64,000 bases of DNA from Candidatus Limnocylindria bacterium (GTDB lineage Bacteria > Chloroflexota > Limnocylindria > P2-11E). The DNA lies in assembly GCA_038207785.1 (NCBI GenBank), contig JBBQZK010000005.1, positions 318 to 64,317 on the forward strand, in the 5' to 3' direction. The notes below the pieces were generated by a model, which was not told the origin of the DNA, did no database searches, and saw nothing but the letters and a program-made list of their open reading frames with translations. Positions 5,435 through 27,266 of the stretch are shown piece after piece (position 1 is the stretch's first letter; each line of letters starts with the position of its first letter). Made by a program: the position numbers and the translations under genes.

Positions 5435-5437
5435 CCC

Positions 5438-6112
5438 GTGGCCGCCACCCTTCGCGCCAGGATCCGCCAGATCGCAGCGCGCCTCCGGCGCGCGTACGGT
5501 CCGCCGCCCGCGCCCCGGCGGCTGCCCCCGCTCGATGAGCTCGTGCTCACCATCCTGTCGCAGAACACGAACGACACGAACCGCGATCGGGCGTACGCGG
5601 ATCTGCGCGGCAGGCTGCCGGCGTGGGACGACGTCGCCGATGCGCCCCTGCCGGTGATCGAGCGGGCCATCCGGCGTGGCGGCCTGGCGCCGACGAAGGC
5701 GCCGCGCATCCGCGCCGTGCTGCGCGCCCTCCGCGATCGTGGCATCGCGCTCGACGATCGCGCGCTCCGCCGCATCCGGCACGACCGGCTGTTCGCCTTG
5801 CTGATCGGCCTGCCCGGTGTCGGCCCGAAGACGGCGGCGTGCGTCCTGTTGTTCTCGCTCGACCGGCCGTATTTCCCGGTCGACACGCACGTGCACCGTG
5901 TGGCGATACGCCTCGGGCTCGTCCCACCGAAGGCGACGGCCGTGCGGACGCAGGAAACGCTGCAGGCCGCGCTCGCAGCCGAGCAGATGTACGAGGTGCA
6001 CATGAACCTGATCCGCCACGGGCGGCACGTGTGCGTCGCGCTGCGCCCGATCTGCTCGCAGTGCGTGGTCAATGAACTCTGCCCGAAGATCGGGGTCGTC
6101 CGCTCGCGCTGA
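5438..6112 (+). CDS. Second endonuclease III-like HhH-GPD glycosylase
   Basis: TILSQNTND, LPGVGPKTA, VDTHV, HGRHVC-X6-C-X2-C-X5-C. Confidence 0.85.
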   Translation: MAATLRARIRQIAARLRRAYGPPPAPRRLPPLDELVLTILSQNTNDTNRDRAYADLRGRLPAWDDVADAPLPVIERAIRRGGLAPTKAPRIRAVLRALRDRGIALDDRALRRIRHDRLFALLIGLPGVGPKTAACVLLFSLDRPYFPVDTHVHRVAIRLGLVPPKATAVRTQETLQAALAAEQMYEVHMNLIRHGRHVCVALRPICSQCVVNELCPKIGVVRSR

Positions 6113-23023: not shown

Positions 23024-23909
23024 CCTCAGCGGACGCGTTCAGTGCGCGACGGGCCGCGGCCTGCGATCGCATCGCCACGGCCACGTAGAGCGCGTCCAAC
23101 AGGCAGAGGTGGGCGAGACGGCTTGCCATCGCCTCATGCCGGAAGGATTGCTCCGGCCCGCCACTCACGAGCACGATGTCAGCGAACCGTGAGATCTCGG
23201 ACCGCGCAAAGCTTGTGACCGCGACCGTCGTCGCGCCGACGTCCCGGGCCGCGCGCAGGGTCATCACTGTTTCGCGCGTCGCCCCGGTGTGCGTGATTGC
23301 GACGCAGACATCGCCGCGGCGCAGCAGTCGCGAGGCCACGTGCTGGACGTGCACATCGGGTGGCGCATCAGCCTGGACGCCGATCGTCCGGAATCGATAT
23401 GCGGCATCTTGTGCGAGCGGGGCCGAGGTACCCACACCGACGAATAGGACTTGGTGCGCGCGAGCGATGGCCTTCACTGCCTCCTCGAACCGATCGGGAT
23501 CGACGGTCCGCACACCTTCCGCCACGGTGTGAGCTGCGGCTGCGAACACCTTGAGCAGCACCGTGCCCGAACCGTCTCCGTTCGCGATATCTCCGTGGTG
23601 AAGCGGCTGTGCCCGAACCTCACCGGCGAGACTGACCTGCAGATCGCGAAAGCCGAGGAACCCCATGCGTTGGCACGAGCGGATGACCGTCGACGGTGAT
23701 GTCTTCGCACGTCGGGCGAGCGCCTCCGCGGTCGCGGTGACCGCGGAGGCCGGATCGTCGAGGATCGCGCGAGCCACGCGCGTGTCGCTGGGCGACAGCG
23801 AGGGCATAAGGCTCCTGATCCGCGGGACGACACTGCCCTGGAAGGTCGGCGCCGATCGACGACGGTTCGGCAGACCGCCGGCGGCCACCTTGCTTCGCTG
23901 CCGCGTCAC
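22950..23909 (-). CDS. RpiR/MurR-family transcriptional regulator (HTH plus SIS); start uncertain
   Basis: LSPSD.RVA, TSPSTVIRSCQRMGF.GF, GVGTSA, ITHTGAT, AVTS. Confidence 0.9.
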   Translation of the reverse strand: MTRQRSKVAAGGLPNRRRSAPTFQGSVVPRIRSLMPSLSPSDTRVARAILDDPASAVTATAEALARRAKTSPSTVIRSCQRMGFLGFRDLQVSLAGEVRAQPLHHGDIANGDGSGTVLLKVFAAAAHTVAEGVRTVDPDRFEEAVKAIARAHQVLFVGVGTSAPLAQDAAYRFRTIGVQADAPPDVHVQHVASRLLRRGDVCVAITHTGATRETVMTLRAARDVGATTVAVTSFARSEISRFADIVLVSGGPEQSFRHEAMASRLAHLCLLDALYVAVAMRSQAAARRALNASAEVIASHRNPQEERRPRSGPARRAAR

Positions 23910-24015
23910 ACGCAGGCCTGCACGAACCGCAGACTAACGACATCCTCGTCTCGTCAGGGGCGTCCGACTGGTCTATGAGTAGTTCTGAGCGCTGACGCAA
24001 TCGCGTTAGCCCACA

Positions 24016-24057
24016 GAGCCGGCGCTCGGACTCGAACCGCCGGCCGACGGCGTACGG
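24016..24057 (-). repeat. Degenerate tRNA-Thr 3'-half copy (att-like scar A)
   Basis: 28/42 ungapped identity (hand count) to 27193-27234. Confidence 0.55.
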
Positions 24058-24290
24058 TCCATCCATACGTCGCGACTGTTCGCCAGCGTTCGCCCGTTCG
24101 GGTCTGTACGTCGGTGGCAGCTCGTCGCCGTCCGCCGGCGTTGTGGCCGGAAACTATCGTCAGCTCGACGCGCGGGGATCGCGAAGAGGTGCTTGCGTTG
24201 TTACCGATACGTGCATTCGGCTCTTCTCGAAAATTGGGCACCCGACGCGGGCGACCGAATTGTCCTGGACTGTGCGACGACGACGAACTA

Positions 24291-24341
24291 AGCCGACGGG
24301 CAGACTCGAACTGACGACCGGCGGCTCCGGCGGTTTACGAA
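24291..24341 (-). repeat. Degenerate tRNA-Thr(CGT) 3'-half copy (att-like scar B)
   Basis: 32/42 identity to the tRNA 3' half, plus a 9-nt insertion. Retains TTCGAG and the anticodon loop TTCGTAA. Confidence 0.7.
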
Positions 24342-24477
24342 TCGCAATGAGGCACGCTCGGCTCGCGAGTGTTCCGCACATGTAGACCCGCGCCGTACCG
24401 CGGTTTACGGCCCTGTTTCGCCCCAACTGCTGCGCGGATTGCTGCACACAGACTGGCTCACCGGTGGACGCGAGAGA

Positions 24478-26886
<2,409 letters not shown>

Positions 26887-26890
26887 CTAC

Positions 26891-27109
26891 CTAGGATGCC
26901 GACCGTGTGCTGCGCTCGTCAGCTGCCTTGTTGGCGAGGACTAGCTCCGACGGAGTGGGCTGACGGTGAGCACAGGCGAAGCGCATTCCACCCTGCGTGA
27001 CGGTCGCGGCTTCTGCGTGGTGCTCAATGCAGAGTCCTACCCCGCAGAAGCGGCACGTGGCGACGGCTTCCCTCGCCGTGCCTTTCTTGATGCATTCGTA
27101 GCAGTTCAA
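26891..27109 (-). CDS. Small Cys/His-rich protein (DUF2180-like)
   Basis: MNCYEC...CRFCG.GLC.EHH. TTG start with SD AAGGGG. Confidence 0.65.
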   Translation of the reverse strand: MNCYECIKKGTAREAVATCRFCGVGLCIEHHAEAATVTQGGMRFACAHRQPTPSELVLANKAADERSTRSAS

Positions 27110-27193
27110 CGCATCCCCTTTCTTCGTTTATCTTTTTTCAGCGTCCTCAGCATTTTACCAAGCGCAATGCGCAGATTCCCCCACAAATCGCGG

Positions 27194-27266
27194 AGCCGAC
27201 GAAGGGGCTCGAACCCTTGACCTGCGGTTTACGAAACCGCTGCTCTACCAACTGAGCTACGTCGGC
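27194..27266 (-). tRNA. tRNA-Thr(CGT); full CCA not encoded
   Basis: GCCGACG/CGTCGGC acceptor stem, AGCTCAGTTGGTAGAGC D arm, GCGGT-TTCGTAA-ACCGC anticodon arm, AAGGG-TTCGAGC-CCCTT T arm. Confidence 0.97.

Follow-up and report, generated by a model that had tools for sequence, protein, structure and literature searches.

The window, by which we mean the whole stretch of DNA analysed here (64,000 nucleotides), belongs to a Chloroflexota genome of high GC content, class Candidatus Limnocylindria, the genes flanking the locus of interest being 80-95% identical to those of metagenome-assembled genomes (MAGs) so labelled. The comparison sequences are MAG or metagenome contigs throughout, and their taxon labels are unreliable. 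Read along the minus strand, a Rieske oxygenase gene and a GNAT gene are followed by tRNA-Thr(CGT) (27192-27266), a Cys-rich DUF2180-like gene (26891-27109) and the catalase-peroxidase gene katG (24478-26829); past katG comes a 568-nt gap, and then an RpiR regulator heading a sugar-catabolism operon. Three fragments resembling the tRNA, here called copies A, B and C, all lie within this katG/RpiR gap. Among the assembled Logan contigs of four runs, those of the run that covers the locus best span 23700-24533 without a break; neither an empty site nor a circular junction of this genome turned up in any contig of that set, and the joints that it does contain belong to tRNA alleles of other organisms. 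A reading of the whole 13.5 kb as one island array was dropped as unsupported, 13.7-24 kb being the sugar-catabolism operon without an integrase.

The similarity of A (24016-24056), B (24291-24341) and C (24374-24437) to tRNA-Thr(CGT), and their location on the same strand as the gene, are as given in the original prediction. When the tRNA was aligned locally, with gaps allowed, to the 568-nt intergenic region and the scores were compared with those of 1000 dinucleotide shuffles, B was the best match (score 20, equalled in 3 of 1000 shuffles), followed by A (score 15, 8 of 1000) and C (score 14.5, 0 of 1000). An ungapped scan of the 41-nt 3′ half of the relatives' tRNA-Thr over the whole window, both strands included (128 kb), found 35/41 matching positions in B and 32/41 in A, where the background did not exceed 26/41, and A and B each start exactly at the anticodon CGT. 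Taken alone, C is at the background level of the whole window (score 19, with chance matches at 18-21), whereas inside its own arm of ~106 nt it is significant (0 of 500 shuffles). The similarity is therefore far above that of shuffled sequence and is not due to chance, and relatives without katG at the site (L010, L013 and L015) have kept no A-like or B-like fragments. The copies are too decayed for the usual tRNA detection tools: ARAGORN called none of the three, and Rfam at E<=10 returned no tRNA-like match for A, B or C.

The tRNA-Thr(CGT) gene is itself intact (ARAGORN; Rfam tRNA, 72.5 bits), and its alignment with the tRNAs of 10 relatives shows that it is chimeric. From its 5′ end to the anticodon stem (27224-27266) the gene agrees with the relatives at every position, whereas 27192-27223, which comprises the variable loop, the T arm and the 3′ strand of the acceptor stem, is of a differing allele, with a T stem AAGGG/CCCTT in place of GGCAG/CTGCC. 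One identical tRNA-Thr(CGT) is found in 8 of the 8 relatives L009-L016, which have in common the Rieske-GNAT-tRNA synteny upstream of the gene (the window flank upstream of the tRNA is syntenic with L009 at 91% identity), and the window tRNA agrees with their 3′-half allele at 31/41 positions, that is, 10/41 positions differ. Copy B, on the other hand, is 94.6-97% identical to the L009-L016 tRNA 3′ end, and without its 9-nt insertion it matches the relatives' 41-mer at 39/41 positions, one mismatch being a substitution inside the tRNA part and the second lying just past the discriminator. The insertion is real, as had been noticed earlier: AGCCGCCGG, at 24318-24326, is a near-duplicate of the adjacent CCGCCGG and is a slippage duplication. 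The T stem of B, GTCAG/CTGCC, had been described as still paired; it pairs at 4/5 positions only, and is the relatives' GGCAG/CTGCC with one substitution.

These comparisons reverse the original prediction that B is a foreign tRNA allele, because B matches the native allele and it is the 3′ half of the functional tRNA that is foreign. Judged by its allele, B is the lineage's own original tRNA-Thr 3′ half, displaced by 2.9 kb, and the 3′ half of the working tRNA is the foreign, element-borne part. Since B carries the relatives' allele and the 3′ half of the window tRNA differs from it, the tRNA-Thr gene is best read as a chimeric attL and B as the corresponding attR. The attL/attR core TTCGTAAACCGC, which spans the anticodon loop and the 3′ anticodon stem, is identical in the tRNA (27224-27235, minus strand) and in copy B (24330-24341, the remainder of B being the native 3′ half), and the crossover would fall somewhere within it. 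The islet between attL and attR measures 2.9 kb and contains only the DUF2180-like gene and katG; its GC content is 58-66% as against 67-72%, a slight drop which is not decisive.

In a search of one genome per species, the foreign allele was part of an intact tRNA-Thr(CGT) in several Chloroflexota, while others had it in fragments only, and in some Chloroflexota (L169) it is native. In Solirubrobacterales, the variable loop, T arm and acceptor strand of tRNA-Thr(GGT) match the foreign allele of the window without a difference over 29 nt (contigs L170, L172, L174, L176-L179, L182, L184 and L187), and L187 has an additional bare 3′ fragment of this tRNA that begins in the anticodon loop. We do not read Solirubrobacterales as the donor of the allele, given that the anticodon arm differs and that the allele is native in L169.

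Just upstream of B lies a conserved P arm of ~110 nt (24342-24452, minus strand), which contains C and is 86% identical to L171, the arms of L188 and L171 being 90% identical to each other. In L171, a fragment of the foreign allele directly adjoins 121 nt that share 86% identity with window 24327-24447. A 22-nt arm motif searched in metagenomes gave three further true cases (L188, L190 and L191), and another (L180) was found among genome contigs by flank comparison; L189, which also came out of the metagenome scan, was rejected as a chance match to the motif. Viral contigs contained neither the arm motif nor the foreign tRNA allele. A block of ~42 nt of the arm is common to the window, L180, L188, L190 and L191. 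In the six cases (the window and L171, L180, L188, L190 and L191) the arm lies about 85-125 nt upstream of TTCGTAAACCGC, and the core is followed by a tRNA-Thr 3′ half, with at least four allele types and one decayed copy among them. The five contigs that carry the arm besides the window differ in their host tRNA-Thr alleles, and one arm beside varied host alleles is the pattern expected of attR junctions made by a single element family in several hosts.

The arm also contains a tandem repeat, GTGCAGCAA-N3-GCGCAGCAG (24427-24447, minus strand), which the P′ arms of L173, L188 and L196 have as well and which is almost absent from ~1.9 Mb of other sequence; these TGCAGCA repeats are candidate arm-type integrase sites. 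In most members of the family the arm shows a loose collinearity with the entire tRNA-Thr, and for that reason it may be a very old tRNA relic. Copy C falls within the most conserved block of the arm and, as this arm is conserved at 86-90% in other genomes, C came in with the katG-bearing element.

On the attL side, a P′ arm remnant of ~27 nt (27165-27191, minus strand) is homologous to the post-tRNA sequence in L173, where an integrase gene follows. The match between window 27164-27266 and L173 412-512 is 91%, and the remnant ends at ~27165, before the arm repeats and the integrase of L173. The P′ arm of the window is thus without the repeats that are present in L173, L188 and L196, whereas its P arm, repeats included, is intact, as is the core at both ends. 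No integrase or remnant of one was detected in the window, either by Pfam on the genes between 11 and 29 kb or by tblastn of the whole window. Members of the family do carry one: L188 is a complete 4.3-kb islet, in which the tRNA is followed by a convergent Phage_integrase gene broken into two frames, then by a cyclase-AAA-TPR gene, the arm and a decayed attR, and in L173 the C-terminus of a tyrosine integrase lies immediately past the tRNA. The predicted loss of the integrase thus agrees with what is seen, and the window copy, having none, is a remnant and not an autonomous element.

The effect of such an integration could be followed in two contigs that share a flank. In L169 the flank follows an intact tRNA; in L180 it follows the arm, the core and a 3′ half. 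The two contigs match at 87% over 1017 nt, their homology extending no further than tRNA position 32, the base that opens the anticodon loop. This comparison sets an empty site against an occupied one, with the breakpoint inside the tRNA at position 32. Among the contigs of the relatives there was no empty site of the lineage to which the window belongs, the contig of the closest relative (L009) stopping at the tRNA.

Copy A is a more decayed tRNA-Thr 3′ half (32/41 to the relatives' allele, minus strand) with a broken T stem, separated from B by a 234-nt spacer (24057-24290, minus strand) that is probably a remnant of an older element. It shows 9/41 changes compared with 2/41 and an indel in B. 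Being further out and more decayed, A fits an older scar in serial integrations, from which we infer the order and timing of the two integration events: A would most likely be the attR that a previous element left when it integrated into this tRNA gene, the element itself having been nearly all lost, and it could otherwise be a relic brought in by other DNA. Just upstream of A there is a weak arm-like match, GAACAGTCGCGA, the score of which was reached in 8 of 300 shuffles with the L188 arm and in 21 of 300 with the L171 arm; a link of A to the same element family is tentative accordingly. Of the two or three successive elements originally proposed, at least two are retained, firmly for B and probably for A, and the third is not, C being part of the element arm.

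The DNA downstream of the tRNA is different in every relative. L014 and L016 have tRNA-Thr fragments of their own, at distances of 1.2 and 1.9 kb downstream; a single large ORF is enclosed in each case, coding in L016 for a histidine kinase, and no integrase-like match was found in these two segments. By comparison of these sequences, the tRNA-Thr(CGT) gene is an integration hotspot. The contigs of three relatives end at the tRNA; L009, L011 and L041 do so exactly at the tRNA-Thr(CGT) 3′ end, and such ends are what would be expected if assembly broke off at the hotspot because tRNA halves are repeated there or strains vary. Among Limnocylindria MAG contigs, further tRNA-Thr 3′ fragments are found at L183 5215-5243 and L186 1985-2013 (both in one 48-kb contig) and at L175 275-303, 893-921 and 6724-6798; contigs of this kind contain two or three fragments each, have either another arm type, unrelated to the first, or a TGCAGCCAA variant of the repeat, and suggest tandem arrays left by other element families. 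Next to tRNA-Thr(CGT) in L188 (4570-5722) and L196 (426-1579) there is an HhH-GPD endonuclease III gene, and its homologue in the window (5437-6066, 74% identity) is 21 kb from the tRNA, so that the neighbourhood of the tRNA varies among Limnocylindria lineages.

The islet's two genes form a module in which the DUF2180-like gene (72 aa, minus strand; Pfam PF09947, E=1e-10; conserved upstream region at ~27110-27164) comes first and katG (minus strand; Pfam peroxidase) second, preceded by a conserved upstream box, AATGCTGAGGACGCTGA. The longest katG ORF is 783 aa; it has a TTG start and is 38 codons longer than the 745-aa call of the collection, and the true start is probably near 26715. The DUF2180-katG module occurs in several unrelated contexts at 90-95% nucleotide identity (window 24478-27164, L192 7988-10513, L195 5635-8232, L196 3582-6264 and L197 5893-8227), and therefore seems to move as a unit. 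Homology to L192, L195 and L196 (92-95%) begins at window 27152-27167. In L192 and L195 there is no tRNA nearby; in L196 a tRNA-Thr with the foreign allele of the window and part of a P′ arm precedes the module by 1.8 kb; and in L197 it is near a duplicated tRNA-Gln. The two tRNA-Gln(CTG) genes of L197 (1137-1209 and 4676-4752) flank a PhdYeFM/ParE toxin-antitoxin pair at a distance of 3.5 kb from each other, and katG, ~1.1 kb past these tRNA genes, looks like part of another tRNA-linked katG island. In a tree of species representatives, the KatG clade is made of Actinomycetota in 22 of 26 cases, yet Chloroflexota-labelled MAGs have katG copies at 85-86%, and a firm actinobacterial origin of katG, once considered, was softened. 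As to the route of katG into the element, we infer that the module may have been cargo of the element or else a later replacement of its interior, which is possible because the module is also found away from any tRNA-Thr at 90-95% (L192, L195 and L197).

Taken together, the fragments are very probably integration scars of tyrosine-integrase elements at tRNA-Thr(CGT), B and the chimeric tRNA belonging to one islet and A to an earlier event. That they are att duplications left at a tRNA hotspot had been proposed from the outset, and the allele swap, the arm conserved beside differing host alleles, the position-32 breakpoint between L169 and L180, and the integrase genes of the family all bear this out. 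A tyrosine-integrase element of a family circulating in Limnocylindria and other Chloroflexota would have recombined at the anticodon loop of tRNA-Thr(CGT) in the chromosome. The 3′ half that it carried would have rebuilt a working gene, which is the present chimeric tRNA (attL), and the host's original 3′ half would have been pushed to the far end of the element, where it became copy B, fused to the P arm with copy C (attR). The integrase and most of the P′ arm would then have been deleted or replaced, so that the 2.9-kb islet has most likely become immobile. Copy A, at 234 nt outward from B, would be the attR of an earlier integration.

Alternatively, the block from attL through the islet to attR could have been acquired as one piece from a close relative, through homologous recombination in the genes on either side, which we consider unlikely. 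Such an import would agree with the recombination of soil MAG populations and with L196, in which the katG module is also downstream of a tRNA-Thr with the same foreign allele. However, the allele of B is that of the window's clade and the flank upstream is syntenic with L009 at 91%, so that the integration occurred at least in this clade, and in any case a whole import alters the place of the event and not the nature of the fragments. That C is a third scar formed in this genome, giving three stacked elements, is quite unlikely and already largely refuted, even though C is collinear with most of the tRNA-Thr (score 19, 0 of 500 shuffles) and has a perfect CGTAAACCGC. The C block is found at about the same distance from the core in L171, L188, L190 and L191 and hence predates the present integration, the anticodon-like string is degenerate in those other copies (GGTAAAGCGC and similar), and C is more decayed than B although nearer to the tRNA, against the stacking order; the third local scar of the original prediction is therefore not supported, C being inside an arm conserved in other genomes at 86-90%.

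A local tandem duplication that left decayed tRNA pseudogenes, with no mobile element involved, could be suspected from the loose alignment of B with the tRNA 5′ half as well (GCCGAGCGTGCCTCA). This explanation is extremely improbable and is already refuted, since the sequence 5′ of the B core is the element arm, which is conserved in other genomes and less tRNA-like there, since A and B start exactly at the anticodon loop, and since a duplication cannot explain the foreign 3′ half on the functional tRNA. The probability that the similarities are the product of chance in GC-rich DNA is close to nil, for only the whole-window score of C points that way and the alignment and scan scores of A and B (gapped shuffles; ungapped 35/41 and 32/41 vs 26/41) already refute it.

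The reading as integration scars places the locus among well-known systems. The anticodon-loop sublocation is one class of tRNA-gene integration site for tyrosine recombinases, and the restoration of a working gene by the element's own tRNA 3′ half is usual for such elements. Like islands and prophages integrated at the anticodon loop, the window has a direct repeat from the anticodon loop to the tRNA 3′ end, its tRNA is rebuilt with an element-borne 3′ half, one tRNA gene is reused, the integrase is next to attL in family members, and candidate arm-type repeats are found on both arms. Unlike them, the window copy has no integrase, a P′ arm of ~27 nt and a two-gene cargo, and the hosts are uncultured Limnocylindria.

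Integration into tRNA genes, with the partial tRNA copies that result, is described as pervasive where PMC9897764 cites Williams 2002 and Reiter 1989, and attR tRNA fragments get mis-annotated as tRNA genes (PMC9897764). The copies in the window resemble the latter in being partial tRNA copies from mobile-element integration, and differ in that they are too decayed to be called as tRNAs by ARAGORN or Rfam. Cis-mobilizable elements (CIMEs) have lost their integration and transfer genes and kept attL and attR (PMC6323972; review PMC5704250). The islet is likewise an integrase-less remnant between att sites, with no integration or transfer genes and only the DUF2180-like gene and katG, at a site that accumulates elements in tandem. 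However, both att sites are intact in a CIME, whereas the P′ arm of the window is truncated and B has an insertion, and a conjugative partner element for the window islet is not known; the islet is at best a degraded CIME.

There is a slim chance that the anticodon loop of tRNA-Thr(CGT) in Limnocylindria acts as a gene-capture platform, where an integrase encoded elsewhere would move islets in trans by means of the ~110-nt fossil-tRNA-Thr arm with its TGCAGCA repeats. The examples would be the islets of one or two genes without an integrase that recur at this tRNA (2.9 kb in the window, 1.2 kb in L014 and 1.9 kb in L016). If that were true, these islets would be functionally nearer to integron cassettes than to decayed islands, and genes such as katG would be traded between Chloroflexota and Actinomycetota.

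The integration mechanism proposed here is ordinary and belongs to the textbook, and it is documented in a little-studied, uncultured lineage of soil Chloroflexota, for which the locus provides a sequence-level record of the acquisition of a peroxide-defence gene. In this record, the swapped tRNA half marks the foreign DNA, and the decay of the two scars would order the two events. The element family, defined by the core TTCGTAAACCGC, the ~110-nt arm with TGCAGCA repeats and an integrase next to attL, is previously undescribed for the class, and its features could help to locate islands in Limnocylindria MAGs and to explain the assembly breaks at tRNA-Thr.
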